Below, in pieces: positions 3,022-12,657 of a stretch of DNA of 56,009 nucleotides; the stretch's first letter is position 1, and each line of letters starts with the position of its first letter. A model generated the notes under the pieces. That model was not told where the DNA came from. It did not search any database and saw only the letters and a program-made list of their open reading frames with translations. Source of the stretch: a virus (taxonomy: Duplodnaviria; Heunggongvirae; Uroviricota; Caudoviricetes); the IMG/VR virus record IMGVR_UViG_2512047041_000008; one strand, given 5' to 3'. The position numbers and the translations under genes were made by a program.

Positions 3022-3912
3022 TCAGGCTGCCAGATCATCGTTTCCGATGGAAGCATAATAAGCTTTTTCTGCTTCTGCCGGAGGAGTATGGCCCAGCCTT
3101 TCCAGCAATCGTCGATTGTTATACCAGTCCACCCACGTGAGTGTGGCCAGTTCCACTTCTGCACGGTTTTTCCAGCTCTTACGGTGTATTACCTCCGCTT
3201 TGTAAAGACCATTGATGCTCTCCGCCATCGCGTTGTCATACGAGTCGCCTGTACTTCCTGTTGATGCCAGTAATCCGGCTTCCTTAAGCCGCTGTGTGTA
3301 GGCCAGCGATACATACTGAGAACCTTTATCACTGTGATGGACCGTGCCGGACGGTCGACGGGCCCATAACGCCTGCTCCAGTGCATCCAGCACGAATGTC
3401 GTTTCCATGGACGATGAGACCCGCCACCCCACGATGTATCCGGCAAACACATCAATGATGAACGCCACATAGACGAAGCCCCGCCATGTGCTGACGTAAG
3501 TAAAATCAGCCACCCACAGCTGGTCAGGTCGTTCTGCCACGAACTGACGGTTTACGCGGTCGCCTGCGGCAACGGCTTTCCGGCTGATGGTCGTACGGAC
3601 CTTTTTACCCCGGAGAACACCGGCAAGTCCCATAACCGCCATGAGACGTGCCACAGTGCATCTGGCCACTCTGATACCTTCCCGTAACAACTGACGCCAG
3701 ACTTTACGCACACCGTATACCTTGTGATTTTCATCGTATACGCGCTGTATCTCTTTCTTCAGCCAGTCATCGCGCTGCGCACGGGCACTGCGTTTATCCG
3801 GATGATGTCGCTGTTGCTGACAGTGGTAATACGTTGACGGGGCAATATGCAGTTCGCTGCATAGCGGTCCGACCCCGTACTGCTCACGCAGCTTATCCAG
3901 CAGTGGCATCAT
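3022..3912 (-). CDS. IS629 transposase OrfB (DDE catalytic domain)
   Basis: 296 aa, DDE/rve-type; start overlaps orfA stop (ATGA). Confidence 0.85.
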
Positions 3913-4235
3913 TTTTTCCAGAGGCGGTCGAACTCCGCCTTCGCAAAATAAGCGGAAGCCTGGCGAAGGATATCGTTACTGCGGCGCAGTTCACGATTTT
4001 CACGTTCCAGCTCTTTCAGACGCTGACGTTCAGCGGTGGTGAGCCCTCCATCACCGCCCCCGGTATCCCGCTCATGCTGGCGAACCCAGACACGCAGAGT
4101 CTCCGGCGTACAGCCAATCTTTGGAGCAATGGAACAAATTGTCGCCCATTGTGAGTCATATTCGCTCTGACTTTCCAGAACCATACGGACTGCCCGTTGA
4201 CGGACTTCGGGGGAAAAACGAGTATTTTTAGTCAT
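3909..4235 (-). CDS. IS629 transposase OrfA (HTH)
   Basis: 108 aa, [19 protein letters not shown]...; IS3-family OrfA. Confidence 0.85.
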
Positions 4236-4289
4236 CCTGTTTACCTCTTTCTCAGGAAGTTTAGTCTCCAGGATTCCCGGGGCGGTTCA

Positions 4290-4523
4290 GTCGCTGAATT
4301 TGAACGAGACCTTTTACTTGAACGCACTCATTCCGGGATAGTAAGAGCCCGGGGCGCAGGAAAACGTTTTGGTCGACCACCTGTGTTAAATGAAGAACAG
4401 AAACAGGTGGTATTCGAACGGATTAAGTCAGGTGTAAGTATAAGTGCCATTGCCCGGGAATTCAAAACCTCGCGGCAAACCATTTTAAGAGCCAAAGCAA
4501 AACTTCAGACACCTGACATATAA
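4290..4523 (+). pseudogene. pin: Pin-like invertase C-terminal part (HTH DNA-binding domain), separated from N-part by IS629
   Basis: After removing the IS and one GTC copy the frame continues ...[19 protein letters not shown]...; Fis/Hin-type C-terminal HTH. Confidence 0.75.
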
Positions 4524-4750: not shown

Positions 4751-5044
4751 TCACCCACGATTAACCAACAGCCAGACCAGCAGACACGCCACCACCGGCA
4801 CAGCAAAATCCATCAGACTTGTCACATCCCACGCGCGCGGATCAAAACCGCCCCACCACGGCATATTCATTCGCTTGCCATGCCCGAACATTTCAATCCA
4901 GCGATATTCTGCCTGGGTATGTTCACGCGCAATGAAGAACGTACAACCGGCTATCGCCCCGTAAGCCCAGTTTCCGGTAAAAAGACCAACCAGTACCTGC
5001 GCAGCCACAGCACAAAGTGCATGAAGGAAAGGTGTTATATCCAT
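4751..5044 (-). CDS. Hypothetical small membrane protein (2-3 predicted TM segments)
   Basis: 97-aa ORF with hydrophobic stretches; no recognised family. Confidence 0.45.
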   Translation of the reverse strand: MDITPFLHALCAVAAQVLVGLFTGNWAYGAIAGCTFFIAREHTQAEYRWIEMFGHGKRMNMPWWGGFDPRAWDVTSLMDFAVPVVACLLVWLLVNRG

Positions 5045-5054
5045 TACTCCTCCT

Positions 5055-5759
5055 TTATCCGATATCGCTTCGGGAAGTTGATAACAACTTTAATTCTGAC
5101 TCAAGTTCATCAACTCTTTCAGTCAGTTTCTGGATATGGTGAATCAGTGGAACAACCAGACGTTCGTACATTACACCTTCGGCAACAAGGCCATTGCTGG
5201 AAATAGCTTCAGGAGCATCATTCTCGTTAGCTGGTCGCCAGTGAACAAACTGAGGGGCAATTTCTCCTACTTCCTCGGCAATCAATCCATAGAATCCCCA
5301 ATCGCGCCTGTCATTTTCGCATTGCGACCTGTACCACACAGGGCGCATCCTGAAAATGAGATCGGCGTGCTCCGAATCTATCGTCTCTACTGAATGTTTA
5401 TAGCGGATAGACGATGTGGACCGCAGTACAGACGAAATTGCGGGGTCAGGATTAAGATAAAGGTTTGCCGCCGCTGTAGTCGTGCCCAATCCCCACAAAT
5501 AAAACGCTTCACGACCAGTCAGCGGGTAAAAATCTCCACCATAACGACCACTTTCCAGATCGTTCACTTCCACTTTGTTTTTCAGCTTATTATCAACTTC
5601 AGTTTTTGTGTATCTGGTGCTGATATCCTGCTTTGCACTGGTCATATCAGTCTGAAGCGTTGATACTTTTCCGTTAATTGAGGAAATATCTTCCTTGGCT
5701 TTACTGACATCTCCCTTTAACGTGGTGATGTCTCCTGGAATTACTGTCGATGTAGCCAT
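5055..5759 (-). CDS. Tail-fibre-like protein with N-terminal coiled coil and C-terminal intramolecular-chaperone (peptidase S74-like) domain
   Basis: 234 aa; C-terminal pattern SSIRYKHSV...GLIAEEV...YERLVVPLIHHIQKL...LESEL resembles S74 auto-cleaving chaperone domains of tail spikes/fibres. Confidence 0.5.
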   Translation of the reverse strand: MATSTVIPGDITTLKGDVSKAKEDISSINGKVSTLQTDMTSAKQDISTRYTKTEVDNKLKNKVEVNDLESGRYGGDFYPLTGREAFYLWGLGTTTAAANLYLNPDPAISSVLRSTSSIRYKHSVETIDSEHADLIFRMRPVWYRSQCENDRRDWGFYGLIAEEVGEIAPQFVHWRPANENDAPEAISSNGLVAEGVMYERLVVPLIHHIQKLTERVDELESELKLLSTSRSDIG

Positions 5760-5768
5760 TTGTCTCCC

Positions 5769-6050
5769 TCACATCCAGCCACGAAGTTGATGCTCAACAA
5801 CAATCGCGTATTTATCGAATATTGACGATTTTTTTGCATCATTAATGATGCGCACGTTTACAAAATATCCGTCCTCCTTAACACATACCGGTTCGCCATC
5901 TTCAGTCAGTTCTCCGGTTTCTTTGTACACGTTACCTATCACGTCAATAAGAATATCATCCTGCATCGACTCGTCATCATAATAGCCAATACTCTCCATA
6001 AAGGCCGAAAAGTCGGCCCTGTCTGCAAATTTGAGCGTTAAATCTTTCAT
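5769..6050 (-). CDS. Hypothetical acidic protein between stf and the S74-domain gene
   Basis: 93-aa ORF, start overlaps stf stop (coupled); no recognised family. Confidence 0.4.
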   Translation of the reverse strand: MKDLTLKFADRADFSAFMESIGYYDDESMQDDILIDVIGNVYKETGELTEDGEPVCVKEDGYFVNVRIINDAKKSSIFDKYAIVVEHQLRGWM

Positions 6051-8452
6051 TTAATACTCTCCCCCATTTGCGCATCAGTTAATTCTTTATGCCAGAGACG
6101 AAGATTTCTCAAATGGCCGAATAGATGACGAGTTCCCGATGTGGCTTGACCTCCAATTCGAATAAAGGTCCGTGTTTTTACGCCCGTCCACTCCGTTTTC
6201 ATGGTTTTAGTAGCCTCACCGTTAGAAACTACTCGTTTAGTACCATCAGAATAAATATTAAAACCACCAATGAATTTTCGAACATCAGTTCGACCAGCAA
6301 ACACACTAGAAACGTAAGTACTTGTCGACGCTTTATAAGTTTGCATATAAAGCTGACCGTAATATTTCTCAGTTGTGTTAAAAGCGTATGTAATTGACTC
6401 AATAGGTGGCACACCAGAAAAATCAAAAATACGCGGTGCTACATTAGGAGGAATATCGCCCCAATTTCTATTAACCTCGACCAGGCACGTAAGCGGTCTA
6501 TTATAGATATTATTTTCAGTTGGGATCGTCACCATATCACTGGAGCGGGTTGCGGGTACAGTTGTCGTAATAACAAAAGATGAAGCACATCCGCCGTTTT
6601 CAAATTGTGGTGTTGCAAGGTAAATATAATCTCCCGCTTCAGTTACACCACCTTTTTTCGGCGCATACTGAATCATTGCGCCAATTAAGGTTTCACCTTC
6701 AACAGCTTCTATAGTTGCCTCATAGAAAATCCACCCTGTAACCGGATCTTTAGTTGCAGTAGCTGCTATTCTATTGGCTGCTCCGCCAGTTTTTTCTATT
6801 ATCAGAGTTCCGAAAGTTAAATAAGCATCTCCTAAAAATGTATAAACCGACCCATCGTATTTTTCAAAACGCAAACGACAACGAAGACCATCAGGAGCTT
6901 TAACCCTGCATGAAACAGTGCAATACTTATTATCGCCACTAACATCAATCCCCCGGGATGCACTGCATGTATGCAGACTAAGTGCAGATGATTGTCCTGT
7001 CATATTATCTTTTGTTCGCATTTTGGCATATGAAAAACCAAATTCATCAACACCATTATTAGTTTTATCGATATTGCTGGTACTCGTCCATTCAGCGGGG
7101 ATATTGGATTTAACAAAATAGTTAGTGCGCTGTCCTTCAATCAATAAACCTTCTTTTTCAAATCGTGGCTCATCAATTTTAGCAACACTAAATACGCCTG
7201 ATTTATTGATATATGTGGCAGTTGATGCGCGTTTAAACTTTACAACCTTATCGCCAGGCATCGTTATTTCATCATCACCAATAACAATCTTTTTATATGA
7301 CGGCGAAAAGCCCGTAATCATATCCAGTGAATCGTTAAACGGTATCCACACATCGGGAAGCGGCTGCAAAACTTGTTTATACGGCTCCGCAGCCTGGCTT
7401 GCATACTCTCTGGCTGCGTCTTCACTTGCTTTTGCAGCCGTCTGGCTTGCTGCCGATGCTTTCGCTGAGTTAGCCGCCGCAGTCTCGCTCGCCTTTGCGT
7501 TGGTTTCACTGGTTTTTGCAGCTTTTTGACTGTTGGCTGATGCAGAGGCAGAAGAAGCCGCCGCACTTGCAGAACCAGCTGCGGCACTCTCGCTTTGGGC
7601 TGCTGCATCCTGACTGTTTTTCGCCGCAGTTTCACTGGCTTTGGCATTCGTTTCGCTGGTCTTCGCTGCCGTCTGGCTGGACTTTGCGTTAGTTTCACTC
7701 GTCTTCGCAGCTTTCTGGCTGTTAGCCGCAGCAGTTGCTGATCCAGTTGCTGAAGTCGCAGAACCGGCTGCCGCGCTCTCGCTTTGGGCTGCTGCAACCT
7801 GGCTGTTTTTTGCCGCAGTTTCACTGGCTTTGGCATTCGTTTCGCTGGTCTTCGCTGCCGTCTGGCTGGACTTTGCGTTGGTTTCGCTCGTCTTTGCGGC
7901 TGTCTCGCTATTTTTCGCGTTGGTTTCTGATTTTTTGGCTGCTGTCGCGGAGTTTTCTGATGCAGTCTGTGAGGTCGCTGCCGCCTGTGCACTATTAGCT
8001 GCATTCGTTTCTGAGGTTTTCGCCGCGTTCTTCGATGATGCCGCTGCAGTTTCGGATTTCTTTGCCGCCGCTGCGCTCTGAGAGGCGGCTTCGGCGTTGC
8101 GTGCCGCTTCTTCCACCATTTCCTCAAAACGACGCAATGCCTCCGGCATGACATCATCTTCCGTCATGGCACCGAGAAAATCATTCAGCGTACCTGGTCT
8201 GGAACCTTCATAGACGGTAATGGTTCCGGCATGTGAAGGCGGAAAACCTTCAACAAGCAGGATAACGCTGTACTGGCCATACTCAACATCCATGCTGTAA
8301 CGCCCGGCTTCATCCGGATTTTCAGAGGCCACCGTGTTCACCAGTACCGTGGTGCTGTTACGCTTTGCCTTCAGTTGAATAGTGCAGTTCTGTATTGGTT
8401 TTCCCGCACCATCTTTCAGCACACCTGAGATTTTTACTGCTGCCATATCCAC
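6047..8452 (-). CDS. stf: Side tail fibre protein (lambda Stf-like N-terminus, Ala/Ser/Thr-rich repeat shaft, lectin-like C-terminal domain)
   Basis: 801 aa; N-terminus MAAVKISGVLKDGAGKP matches recalled lambda Stf; internal tandem repeats. Confidence 0.75.
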   Translation of the reverse strand: MDMAAVKISGVLKDGAGKPIQNCTIQLKAKRNSTTVLVNTVASENPDEAGRYSMDVEYGQYSVILLVEGFPPSHAGTITVYEGSRPGTLNDFLGAMTEDDVMPEALRRFEEMVEEAARNAEAASQSAAAAKKSETAAASSKNAAKTSETNAANSAQAAATSQTASENSATAAKKSETNAKNSETAAKTSETNAKSSQTAAKTSETNAKASETAAKNSQVAAAQSESAAAGSATSATGSATAAANSQKAAKTSETNAKSSQTAAKTSETNAKASETAAKNSQDAAAQSESAAAGSASAAASSASASANSQKAAKTSETNAKASETAAANSAKASAASQTAAKASEDAAREYASQAAEPYKQVLQPLPDVWIPFNDSLDMITGFSPSYKKIVIGDDEITMPGDKVVKFKRASTATYINKSGVFSVAKIDEPRFEKEGLLIEGQRTNYFVKSNIPAEWTSTSNIDKTNNGVDEFGFSYAKMRTKDNMTGQSSALSLHTCSASRGIDVSGDNKYCTVSCRVKAPDGLRCRLRFEKYDGSVYTFLGDAYLTFGTLIIEKTGGAANRIAATATKDPVTGWIFYEATIEAVEGETLIGAMIQYAPKKGGVTEAGDYIYLATPQFENGGCASSFVITTTVPATRSSDMVTIPTENNIYNRPLTCLVEVNRNWGDIPPNVAPRIFDFSGVPPIESITYAFNTTEKYYGQLYMQTYKASTSTYVSSVFAGRTDVRKFIGGFNIYSDGTKRVVSNGEATKTMKTEWTGVKTRTFIRIGGQATSGTRHLFGHLRNLRLWHKELTDAQMGESIK
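7569..7946. repeat. Two tandem 189-bp (63-codon) repeat units inside stf, within a longer degenerate repeat tract
   Basis: Sequence from 7569 recurs at 7758 with near identity over about 120 bp; encodes repeated SETNAK..TAAK motifs. Confidence 0.8.
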
Positions 8453-8510: not shown

Positions 8511-9110
8511 TCAGAACTTATAACCGACACCCACGATGAAACCGTCAGTGCGCCAGTCGCCACTGCCGGAGCCTTCATAAGCAATATCAATGGCCACGGA
8601 TTCGGTCGGGTTAAACTGCACGCCAGCTCCCCACGCCAGAGACGTGTTGCTGTGGCGATCGTCATCACTTCCGGTCAGCACATCGTGCGTTTTCCCCTTG
8701 TTGTCAGTTACGCGGAGATAATCCCCGGAGAACGTCGAAACACGGCTGTAAGCCACACCTGCCATCGCATAAGCACTGAACCATTCATTCACGCGTACAG
8801 ATGGCCCCGCCATCATGCTGAACCAGCGGTTACGCACGGAATCTTCATGCCAGCGGGTATCGCTGTAATGCGTTTTTTGCTCATCTTTGGCATTGGCATA
8901 ACTGAATGACGTCACCAGCCCCAGCGTGTCCGTAAATTCATAACGGTATTTCACGTTAATGCCCTTCAGGTCATCACTGCCTGGCATATCAGTATGGGTC
9001 TGAAGATACCCGGCGCTTAGTGTGGACTGATGCTCTGCTGCGCTCGCTGGCGTACCAGCGGCAACCAGCCAGACTACTGCGGACAGAATAACAGCACATA
9101 ATTTACGCAT
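8511..9110 (-). CDS. lom: Lom outer-membrane protein (Ail/Lom family)
   Basis: 199 aa with signal peptide and beta-barrel pattern; position after J as in lambda. Confidence 0.85.
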   Translation of the reverse strand: MRKLCAVILSAVVWLVAAGTPASAAEHQSTLSAGYLQTHTDMPGSDDLKGINVKYRYEFTDTLGLVTSFSYANAKDEQKTHYSDTRWHEDSVRNRWFSMMAGPSVRVNEWFSAYAMAGVAYSRVSTFSGDYLRVTDNKGKTHDVLTGSDDDRHSNTSLAWGAGVQFNPTESVAIDIAYEGSGSGDWRTDGFIVGVGYKF

Positions 9111-9177: not shown

Positions 9178-12100
9178 TCAGCTGATACTGATGCCTGCGG
9201 TGGCTTTCTTCATCACCACAACCAGCAAATCGCTGATACTTGCTGTGGGATACCAGTCATTTACCAGCCATGCTGACACCGAAAACTCCAGCGTCATGTG
9301 ACCGTGACCGGCAGGCATATCAATAACGCCACTGTAAATCAGCGTATTATCCAGCGCGGTACGGTTATAAATTTCAGCACCGTTTTTCCGCACTATCAGA
9401 CGGCATGAGGAGTAAATATCAGTATGCTCTCTCTCATGTTTAGCGCCGCTGAATGCCACCGCCGGAATAACAATCTGCCGGTCAAACGGCTGATCGTCAT
9501 AAATCCTGACGGTAATGGTCCCTGATGGCCACCGTTCCGGTGCACGGGAGTCCCGGGGGAAAGCTTTACCCACTGTTTTAACGAGATCGCCTTCAATCTG
9601 GTTCGCGGACAGTTTTCCCAGAACCCGGCAGTTCTCGTTAATCGTGACGTTGTTGAGCGTCCCGGAGTTCGCATTCACGTTACCGCTGATATCGGCATTT
9701 TTCGCCGTCAGCCGCCCGTCCGGTGTCAGGGAAAATGCCGGAGGATTACCGCCGCTGGTAATGGTGGGAGCCGTCAGATATTTCAGGAACACTTCGTTCA
9801 TGAATATCTGATCGCCCTGACCAACAAACATCGGCTTTGTGTTGCCATTCGCAGGATTAACCATCGCAATCCTGTCCGCCGCCAGCAGCACCTGACTCTG
9901 CATGCCGTCAGGGGTGTTCTCAATACCGGCACCAATACCCGCGATATAAAGGCGTCCGTCCTGCATCTGCTGCAGCTTCACAGCCCACATGCTGTTCAGG
10001 TTATTATTTGTATCAACCTGAACCTTCTGTATCTGCTGAATTGCCGCACTCTGGTCTTCCAGTTTCTTATTGACGGTCTGCGTGATTTCATTGCTGACAT
10101 CCGTAATGGACGTCCTGATTTCAGCCAGGTCAGGCGCAAGCTGACCGTTATCAATCTGCGTCCACAGCTCCTGAGCCAGATGGCTTTTCCCTATCTCGCC
10201 TTTGAAAAAATCCAGATAGCCGGATGCATCATCACTCGGCTGGCCAACAGCCTCCACAAATGCCGATTTGCCAACGGTGTTCACACTGCGGATGTAAAAA
10301 TAATAATCATGGCCCGGTTTGATATTGATACTGGCAGCTATCCAGTACAGCGCCGTGCCAAGATAGCGGGCTGTGGTTTCAACCTGCCTGATATCCGCAA
10401 TCCGCTTTTCCGAGAACCAGAACTCAAACTGTACCGTCGGATCATAAACGGCAAGATGGGGCGTGGCGGTTATCTGAAAATAGCCCGGCGTCAGCTCAAT
10501 CCGCGACGGCGCTGCCGGTGCGGCAATACGGAACGATACCGATGCCGGATCGCCCTGCTGCCCCCAGGCATTTGCCGCCCGGACTGTCAGCCTGTAGTTT
10601 CCCAGCGCCAGTTGCGTGAAGCGGTATGTGGTTTCCGTCGTCCGGGCCGTGCTGACCAGCCGCTCACTGCCGTCATCCGCTGCCACGGTCAGGCGAAGCA
10701 GGAAGCTCACGCCCTTCACCACCTTCGGTGTGTCCCATCGCGCCAGCACCTGATATTCCCCGCTGTCTGCAGTGACTTCTGCGGTCAGGTGCTGCACCGC
10801 TGGCGGCGTGACACCATTCACCGTGCCACTCTGTTCGCCGTCAAAGTGCGCCCCGTTATCCACGATGGCCTCTTTTTCCGGCACATGCTGCACGGCGGTG
10901 ATGGCATACGTGCCGTCGTCGTTCTCACGGATACTCACGCAGCGGAACAGTCGCTGGCGCAGCGTCGGCAGCTTCAGCCCCCATACGCTGTATTCAGCAA
11001 CACCGTCAGGAACACGGCTCACTTTTACCTTCACGCCGTCGGTGACGGACTGAACCTCCACGCTGACCGGATTGCCACTTCCGTCAACCAGGCTTATCAG
11101 CGTGGTACCGGAGGATGGCAGCGTGATTTCACGGTCGAGCGTCAGCGTCCGGGTCTGGCTGTTCACCGCCAGCACGCGACCACCGGTGCTGATACCGGCA
11201 TAGTCATCATCGCAGATTTCAATGACATCGCCCGGCACATGGCGAAGCCCTTCTGCGCCCACGCTGAAATCCACGGTCTGCGTTTCCAGCAGTTCCGTTT
11301 TAATCAGCCACAGCCCGGCGCGGTGTGCCTGCCCCCGGCTGGTACAGCCAAAGGCATCCATCTTCGTGACATTACGACCGTAACGGGCAATGGCCTGCGT
11401 ATCTTCAACAAGCTCTGTCGCCGTCTCCCAGCCGTTGTCCGGGTCAATCCAGTTCACCTCAACGGCATTATGGCGGTCCTTCAGGGCGCTGAAGCTGTAG
11501 CGGAACGGCGCGCCATCATCCGGCATCACCACATTACTGCGGTTATAGGTCCACACCTTATCCGACTGTCGGTCCTGCACGAACGTCAGCGTCTGCCCGT
11601 TCCATACCGGCATACAGCGCATCGCCGAGCAGAAATCACTGAGCACATCCCACGCCTTGCGCTGTGTGGTCAGGTACGCATTACAGGTGATGCGCGGCTC
11701 CGTGCCGCCAAAGCCGTCCGGCACTGACTGGTCGCAGTACTGGCCGATGACATACAGCGCCCATTTGTCCACATCCGCCGCACCAAGACGTTTCCCCATG
11801 CCGTAGCGCGGGTGGGTCAGCATATCCCACAGACACCAGGCCATGTTGTTGCTGTATACTGGTTTTAACGTTCCGTCCCAGATACCGCTGTATTGTCGCG
11901 TCTGCGGGTTATAGTTCGACGGCACCTGCAGAATGCGCCCGCGAAGATGATAATTACGGCTCACCTGCTGGCTGCCGAACTGCTCCGAGTCCACCTGTAC
12001 GCCGACCAGTGCCGTGTTCGGGTAGCACTGTTTCACATCGATGATCTCGGTGTATGACGACCAGAGCGTTTTGTTCTGCAGCTGGTCTGTGGTGCTGTCC

Positions 12101-12657
12101 GGCGTCATCCTGCGCATCCGGATATTGAACGGGCGCGGCGGCAGGTTATCCACCACCACCGAGGCCAGATACTGCGAGGTGGTTTTGCCCTTAATGGTGA
12201 TGTCTTTTTCCGTCACCCAGCCACCGTTACGCTGTATCTGAACCAGCAGGCGGACTTCCGACGGATTCCTGTCTCCCTTTGAGGTGGTTTCCACCAGTGC
12301 CTGTACACCGAAGGTAAAGCGCAGACGGTCGATGTTTGCCGACGTGATGGTCCGGGTGATCGGCGTTTCATATTTCACTTCCGTACCGAGCACCGTCTCG
12401 GAACCGGAGGATTCAAATCCCTCCGGCGGTGACTGCTCCTGCTCACCTGCCCGGAACACCACCGTGACGCCGGAGATATTGGTATTCCCCTCACTGTCCA
12501 GCACCGGCGTACTGTTCAGCAGCACGCTTTTTAATCCATCCACCGGACCTTCAATCGGCCCTTCGCTGATGGCATCAATCGCACTCAACAGCTGCGTGGA
12601 TTTCAGGTTATCTTTCGCTTCGCGCGGGGTATGCCCCTTACTGCTGCCTGTACCCAT
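9178..12657 (-). CDS. J: Tail tip / host specificity protein J
   Basis: 1159 aa; position and size as lambda J (1132 aa). Confidence 0.9.

Follow-up and report, generated by a model that had tools for sequence, protein, structure and literature searches.

A tandem nine-heptad repeat in a lambda-type side tail fibre gene and its one- and two-unit alleles

Results and discussion

The DNA analysed here, referred to as the window, is a stretch of 56,009 nucleotides (nt) from the IMG/VR virus record IMGVR_UViG_2512047041_000008, and it is lambdoid prophage DNA of E. coli. Its stf gene, which encodes a side tail fibre (Stf) of 799 amino acids (aa) on the minus strand (6047-8446, from an ATG at 8446 in the list of open reading frames (ORFs)), contains two 189-nt units arranged head to tail. 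The repeat is real. It amounts to a length polymorphism of an ordinary kind in a known protein, and its novelty is low. In all likelihood, though not with certainty, it arose as an old duplication of a nine-heptad block in the rod of the fibre, from which one unit is occasionally lost through homology between the copies, so that one-unit and two-unit forms coexist in the population.

A 189-nt tandem repeat within stf

Tandem Repeats Finder reported a 189-nt period at window positions 7569-7909, with 1.8 copies, 92% matches, 0% indels and a score of 598, which sets the start of the second copy at 7758 (7569+189). Periods of 21 nt and 42 nt are nested within this array, and it is the sole tandem repeat scoring 80 or more across the whole 56-kb window. 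In an ungapped repeat search the 189-nt register reaches 7475-7852, with 83% identity between 7475-7663 and 7664-7852. A preliminary description of this DNA had placed two tandem 189-bp units at 7569 and 7758 and had proposed Tandem Repeats Finder as a check; the program returned the period at those coordinates, in agreement with both positions. The description had also called the unit an in-frame block of 63 codons, and both copies indeed lie in frame within the minus-strand ORF of 801 codons.

When the limits of the units are set in codon and heptad register, the first unit in the direction of translation, U1, occupies 7718-7906 and the second, U2, occupies 7529-7717, both on the minus strand. 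Each consists of 63 aa, or nine heptads (aa 183-245 and 246-308, respectively, numbered from an upstream GTG, see below). They are followed at 7466-7528 (minus strand) by a partial third copy, recognized in a per-heptad comparison at a lag of 189, which comprises the first three heptads of the unit (QKAAKTS ETNAKAS ETAAANS). U1 and U2 are identical at 160 of 189 nt and thus differ at 29 positions; the codons that differ comprise 16 synonymous and 9 non-synonymous cases. The longest exact run is a perfect block of 68 nt (minus strand; 7812-7879 in U1, 7623-7690 in U2), and a shorter identical block of 21 nt lies at 7775-7796 in U1 and 7586-7607 in U2 (minus strand).

The order of the heptads was shuffled 2,000 times to control for the background that arises from the degenerate 21-nt repeat. 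The best nine-heptad diagonal in the actual sequence is 85.2% identical, compared with 60.4 ± 2.3% (maximum 71.4%) under shuffling, and none of the 2,000 shuffles reached 85.2%. The 189-nt periodicity thus goes beyond what the 21-nt repeat alone yields.

Identity and domains of the fibre protein

The open frame of stf extends upstream to a GTG at 8452 (6047-8452), which would give a product of 801 aa; homologues begin at the ATG at 8446. The product carries the prophage tail fibre N-terminal domain PF08400 (E = 6e-67, above the family cut-off) and matches the tail protein family phrog_1419 from end to end. Its N-terminal collar, or tail-attachment, domain (8162-8440, minus strand) was located by a phmmer search, in which Stf residues 5-97 align with residues 2-94 of the 94-residue ‘Tail fiber protein’ chain of PDB entries 9e7m and 9mgh (E = 1.6e-49). 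In the virion structure of Ur-lambda (PMC12617516), this chain represents the collar domain of Stf. The family and collar matches, together with the position of the gene after J and lom, bear out the earlier identification of a side tail fibre gene. Three features of a lambda-type Stf are thus found, namely the collar domain, the place of the gene after J and lom, and a heptad rod that follows a short linker.

The distal part of the protein is of a different kind. Residues 435-635 (6542-7144, minus strand) match the ‘phage head spike fiber’ model NF048003 of NCBIfam (GTA_spike_fiber; E = 2.4e-14), and this domain is not the tip resembling gp37 of phage T4 that lambda Stf carries. Judged by its sequence, the stf product is therefore a member of the lambda Stf family by its proximal half only. 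Nucleotide homology to many phages ends near nt 1296 of the gene, where the distal domain starts, and for some phages it ends near nt 897, inside U2. These breaks are the familiar modular swapping of fibre tips.

The gene is common. The exact 799-aa protein is present on 154 public contigs, closed chromosomes among them; some match to stf is found in 4,844 of 5,426 complete E. coli genomes, and 222 of these hold most of the gene.

The heptad tract and the predicted rod

U1 and U2 belong to a tract of 35 uninterrupted heptads of the form x-x-x-A-x-x-S (7382-8116, minus strand; residues 113-357 in the GTG numbering), which is likely to form the proximal, trimeric α-helical coiled-coil rod of the fibre. 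Ala occupies the fourth position in 32 of the 35 heptads and Ser the seventh position in 32 of 35, there is no break of phase over 245 residues, and the tract contains no Pro and few Gly. The preliminary description had spoken of a degenerate tract at 7430-8050 encoding Ala/Ser/Thr-rich shaft repeats. Such a tract exists, but it is larger than proposed, and the composition noted at the time corresponds to a strict heptad array like the proximal coiled coil of lambda Stf.

The same Ala/Ser pattern extends over about 37 heptads in lambda orf-401, the N-terminal part of Stf. In Ur-lambda the side fibre is a trimer, in which residues 1-91 form the collar, 92-101 a linker and 102-393 the ‘proximal coiled-coil domain’, and the proximal segment of lambda Stf was seen as a rigid rod by electron cryo-tomography (cryo-ET) in a combined electron cryo-microscopy and cryo-ET study (PMC12617516). 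By analogy, the heptad tract in the window would form a trimeric coiled coil homologous to this segment. An AlphaFold2 model of the monomer predicts helices at residues 99-226 and 233-357, but with mean values of the predicted local distance difference test (pLDDT) for blocks of the tract of only 53-76.

One repeat unit of 63 residues equals exactly nine heptads (63 = 9 × 7). The gain or loss of a unit therefore preserves both the reading frame and the register of the coiled coil, and length variants can for this reason still assemble. The rise of a coiled coil is about 0.148 nm per residue. One unit would thus change the length of the rod by about 9.3 nm, while the tract as a whole would measure about 36 nm.

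Copy number among related fibres

A protein search for close homologues with the same distal domain (n = 120) returned two length classes, of 798-799 aa and 735-736 aa. The heptad tract measures 242 residues in one class and 179 residues in the other, so that the classes differ by exactly 63. When all 196 cluster representatives are counted, the two-unit form makes up about 174 and the one-unit form 22, with no three-unit form. A second sample, from IMG/VR, took the 80 viral contigs whose collar domains were most similar to that of the window; 62 of them could be parsed. Here, 59 loci carry two units and three carry one, and no locus has three or more. The two-unit form thus accounts for about 90-95% of the relatives. 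A synthetic query with a four-unit tract, which should favour expanded alleles, retrieved no protein longer than 802 aa. In the IMG/VR loci, proteins of at least eight length classes contain the two-unit tract, which is hence combined with several distal modules.

The complete genomes AVS0655 (735 aa) and CB209 (728 aa) each carry an intact one-unit gene, and so does the isolated phage IdasGreatGrand (731 aa). The distal domain of the CB209 protein is 97.9% identical to that of a 791-aa two-unit family, and the dimorphism of one and two units therefore recurs in a second fibre type. The comparison of copy number across homologous fibres, which the preliminary description had put forward, thus yields one or two units and none with three. 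Its suggestion that fibre length may vary between strains is borne out as well, by the one-unit alleles in closed genomes and in a phage and by exact losses of 189 nt in alleles that otherwise differ by 0-1 nt from that of the window.

The 5,426 complete E. coli genomes were searched with synthetic one-unit and three-unit DNA queries, and for counting units only the record spans of the matches listed are usable. Counts of genomes with ‘80% covered’ were rejected as a census of units: overlapping pieces are joined in such counts, so that two-unit genomes fully cover a three-unit query. In addition, single high-scoring segment pairs of two-unit genomes imitate partial one-unit hits, which makes a census by coverage unusable.

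Smaller differences are found alongside the loss of whole units. The closed genome 203740 (L094) has a 21-nt deletion of one heptad inside U1, by which QVAAAQS ESAAAGS becomes QVAAAGS. Thirty-three instead of 34 heptads are present in 15 of the 62 parsed IMG/VR loci, among them loci with a 784-aa Stf, although their identity with the deletion in 203740 is unconfirmed. The common length classes, of 25, 33 and 34 heptads, are separated by whole heptads. Variants that leave the register are singletons (+3, -4, -6 and -44 aa in P0002, P0117, P0123 and P0009, respectively). Further afield, 19 heptads make up the tract of the lambda-like phage Lambda_2E9, and in many genomes the tract, which belongs to other lambdoid Stf proteins, is shorter by 315 nt (15 heptads).

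Exact one-unit derivatives of the window allele

The coding DNA of the one-unit protein P0004 was taken from three assemblies (L002, L003 and L004) and compared with the window gene. L002 and L003 show no mismatches over 2211 aligned nt and a clean gap of 189 nt, and L004 differs by one mismatch in addition to the same gap. In all three the position of the gap is free to shift within the perfect block of 68 nt, and this is the commonest exact deletion allele. A second one-unit protein, P0003, is encoded by L090, which likewise has one mismatch and a 189-nt gap, the latter at another place; its junction falls in the 21-nt identical block at 7775-7796. In the more diverged one-unit allele L092 the junction lies near the boundary of the units. 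The two units of the window can be told apart at 29 sites, and the one-unit genes are chimeras of them, with the head of U1 and the tail of U2. They therefore derive by deletion from a parent resembling the window allele and are not its ancestors.

Age of the duplication and possible mechanism

A comparison of 171 two-unit proteins gave 97% identity among the U1 copies and 96.9% among the U2 copies. Between U1 and U2 the identity is 87.3% within a protein and 86.8% between proteins. Since the value is about 87% in both cases, the units have not been homogenised, and the duplication is older than the sampled diversity. As in a repeat of variable copy number, the copies are head to tail and highly identical, and their number differs between near-identical alleles; many copy-number states and concerted evolution of the units, which would also characterize such a repeat, were not found. 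The view that these repeats are prone to slippage or recombination, expressed in the preliminary description, consequently stands in part. Deletions by repeat homology do occur occasionally, but with only one or two units and with old, conserved paralogues the array is not a slippage-prone variable-number tandem repeat. As judged from these comparisons, it appears to be an old and mostly stable duplication with occasional loss of a unit.

We propose the following course of events. An in-frame duplication of a nine-heptad block within the proximal coiled-coil rod of a lambda-type Stf would have taken place long ago. The homology retained between U1 and U2, in particular the blocks of 68 nt and 21 nt, would from time to time support unequal recombination, replication slippage or single-strand annealing. 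Recombination between the units would then remove one of them, and might perhaps at times restore two. The expected outcome is a majority two-unit form with 34-35 heptads, a minority one-unit form with 25 heptads, and in addition the variant with a one-heptad deletion. For efficient recombination in E. coli, a block of 68 nt is longer than the minimum that is commonly quoted. A junction of 21 nt fits slippage or phage Red-type annealing better. The junctions show deletions that are in register and flanked by homology, and a change in the reach of the fibre and in the rate of adsorption may follow from the loss of a unit. Chi sites were considered as drivers of recombination and rejected, as there is no Chi site between window positions 5,000 and 10,000. 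The lack of three-unit alleles is compatible with an intramolecular mechanism that only deletes or with selection against longer rods, but with about three independent events this is no more than a hint.

Alternative explanations

Several observations weigh against an old duplication from which a unit is now and then lost. Alleles derived from that of the window by exact deletion were found only on draft or metagenome contigs, the longest of which measures 279 kb, and among the matches listed only about five complete-genome records have a contiguous one-unit tract with the same flanks. Some of the draft one-unit alleles could be assembly errors. Alleles with three units are missing, perhaps because the mechanism favours deletion or because of selection, and the AlphaFold2 model is poor overall (mean pLDDT 55, predicted template modelling score 0.30), with a hairpin-like break of the helix at 227-232. 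If the first of these points is taken to its limit, copy number would truly be fixed at two and every one-unit allele would be a collapse in short-read assembly. The exact one-unit derivative P0004 would suit such an account, being confined to draft contigs of at most 279 kb and never seen on a closed chromosome, and so would its junction, the commonest one, which sits in the identical block of 68 nt, as would be expected of a collapse. Many cluster members are moreover partial (521-641 aa) and stop at contig edges, with several breaks in or near the repeat as far as lengths alone can place them; the 189-bp repeat may thus break short-read assemblies. We nevertheless regard a general collapse as quite unlikely. 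AVS0655, CB209 and the isolated phage have intact one-unit genes with substitutions of their own and with different distal domains, at least two classes of junction exist, L002 is a k141 contig for which k exceeds the 68-nt identical block, and the block at the L090 junction is, at just 21 nt, too short for collapse at the usual final k-mer sizes. Collapse could therefore explain some draft cases but not the closed or phage genomes, and it is unlikely for L002 and L090. Very unlikely, in turn, is the opposite polarity, in which the one-unit form is ancestral, the two-unit form is a spreading duplication, and variation arises by expansion and not by loss. One duplication must of course have occurred at some time, and three two-unit alleles (P0109, P0118 and the closed genome of strain 8178) have a U2-type 3' end in both units, as re-duplication of a one-unit allele would produce, although gene conversion could also account for it. 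Yet the units differ at 29 of 189 nt while each is conserved at about 97% over 171 diverged alleles with many distal domains, so that the duplication must be older than these; and the one-unit alleles are U1-head/U2-tail chimeras, and the two compared as DNA, P0004 and P0003, lie 0-1 nt from a present-day two-unit allele, which a deletion would produce and an ancestral state would not.

The remaining alternatives concern what the variation is for, or whether it matters. A tandem array that is in frame and in register, with a perfect block of 68 nt and deletions recurring at two or more junctions, might be a hypermutable contingency locus at which fibre length is switched frequently within a population. 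Only two main states are observed, however: no allele with three or more units was retrieved even by the synthetic four-unit query, the units are not homogenised, and about 90-95% of alleles remain two-unit; we consider it highly improbable. That the Ala/Ser-rich tract is a disordered, low-complexity linker, in which the number of units has little structural meaning, seems to us scarcely credible. The composition is indeed of low complexity and the AlphaFold2 confidence in the tract is only 55-76. On the other hand, the heptad phase holds strictly for 245 residues, Pro is absent and Gly is rare, the common classes of 25, 33 and 34 heptads differ by whole heptads with departures confined to singletons, the tract is predicted to be helical, and the homologous segment of lambda is a rigid proximal rod by cryo-ET (PMC12617516). 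It is also conceivable, if unlikely, that the forms with 25 and 34 heptads constitute an adaptive, recurrent length switch. Repeat-mediated recombination would then take out or restore a block of nine heptads, and lambdoid phages would in this way match the reach of their side fibres, in a step of about 9 nm, to how thick the O-antigen or capsule layer of the host is. If this were true, the lack of three-unit alleles would mark an upper limit on useful length.

Relation to known systems

The closest relative of known structure is Stf of Ur-lambda, which has the same collar domain, the same order J-lom-stf and the same x-x-x-A-x-x-S heptads directly after the linker. Its tract is longer, with about 37-41 heptads. 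The distal halves differ entirely: lambda Stf continues with a hinge and a T4 gp37-like tip and is accompanied by Tfa, whereas the window has the GTA/head-spike-fibre domain, a 93-aa ORF and a separate protein with an S74 domain. The Stf proteins of the phages and prophages 2G7b, Tritos, HannyBb, PhiR49_1 and IdasGreatGrand share the N-terminal domain and the heptad tract with the window at 92-97% nucleotide identity, and they differ from it mainly in the number of units (one in IdasGreatGrand) and in the distal receptor-binding module. Their homology to the window gene breaks off near nt 897 or near nt 1296-1337.

Outside phages, the streptococcal M protein provides a parallel, as it contains in-frame tandem blocks of whole heptads within a coiled coil, and homologous recombination between them alters the length of the fibre. 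M-protein arrays, however, have many copies and change frequently under immune selection, while the window has one or two copies with units that are old and diverged. The number of repeated units also sets the length of an elongated part of the virion in the adenovirus fibre shaft and in the lambda tape measure protein gpH; the folds and proteins concerned, a triple β-spiral and a tape measure, are unlike Stf.

A search of the literature returned no prior description of this duplication or of its variation in copy number, and only the paper on the Ur-lambda structure proved relevant. Features of this kind are well known, however, and the sequence occurs commonly in databases. No new biological principle is involved, and the practical value is modest. 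For fibre engineering, the natural variants indicate that changes of whole heptads (1, 9 and 15) are tolerated in the proximal rods of lambda-type fibres, which should be useful in work on the host range of chimeric Stf proteins. If the length of the fibre affects adsorption to encapsulated or smooth strains, the dimorphism of one and two units would offer a simple natural test case.

Neighbouring genes and side features

Upstream of stf in the direction of transcription lie J, the gene of the central tail fibre or tail tip (9178-12657, minus strand; an ORF of 1159 aa, annotated as gpJ in the identical region of strain LST200A), and lom (8511-9110, minus strand; PF06316 Ail_Lom, E = 1.7e-127). 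The order J-lom-stf, which is that of lambda, is conserved in L001-L009; in the window all three genes are on the minus strand. In strain LST200A (L001, 6001-9742) an stf gene that is otherwise 100% identical to that of the window is broken by an insertion of the IS3 family; in the annotation of that strain the gene appears as fragments, with the name ‘terminase’ given to its last 186 nt.

No Tfa was found downstream of stf by Pfam and PHROG matches, and its place is occupied by two other genes. A 93-aa ORF (5769-6050, minus strand; phrog_1361, no known function) overlaps the stop codon of stf by 4 nt. It is found at the same position in L002-L007 and accompanies every fibre of the window type that was examined, and its product may be the assembly factor for the distal domain of this fibre. 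Next to it lies the gene of a 234-aa fibre-like protein (5055-5759, minus strand), which ends in an S74 intramolecular-chaperone domain (PF13884, E = 4.6e-6) and matches the C-terminal part of phrog_3299. This protein is replaced by one of 346 aa in L002 (6499-7539) and L003, and a gene of 346 codons is likewise placed in CB209. The 234-aa protein of the window and the 346-aa protein of L002 have in common only the first ~25 residues and the S74 tail.

A serine invertase gene in the same region is split in the window by an element of the IS3 family, with its halves at 2620-2982 and 4197-4523 (both on the plus strand) and the element between them (3022-4235, minus strand). The N-terminal half matches Resolvase (E = 5.8e-26) and the C-terminal half HTH_7 (E = 1.9e-11), while the element carries orfA (HTH_Tnp_1) and orfB (rve). 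In L002 and L003 the invertase is intact at the corresponding place. From their sequences, the 234-aa and 346-aa proteins look like alternative distal cassettes beside an invertase, reminiscent of invertible tail-fibre segments.

Finally, the heptad tract contains several long ORFs in addition to stf. One of 146 aa runs antisense to the gene (7641-8081, plus strand), appears in LST200A as the ‘hypothetical protein’ WP_011076512.1, and has no Pfam match; others pass through the tract in the wrong frame (7318-8157, minus strand) or antisense (7125-7529, plus strand). We rejected the antisense ORFs as real genes because they match no family and because the same artefact is known from the lambda reference, in which an analogous antisense orf206b lies inside orf-401. 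The antisense and wrong-frame ORFs are probably annotation artefacts of the GCN-rich codons for Ala and Ser, and annotators should expect the repeat tract to yield spurious antisense ‘hypothetical proteins’.

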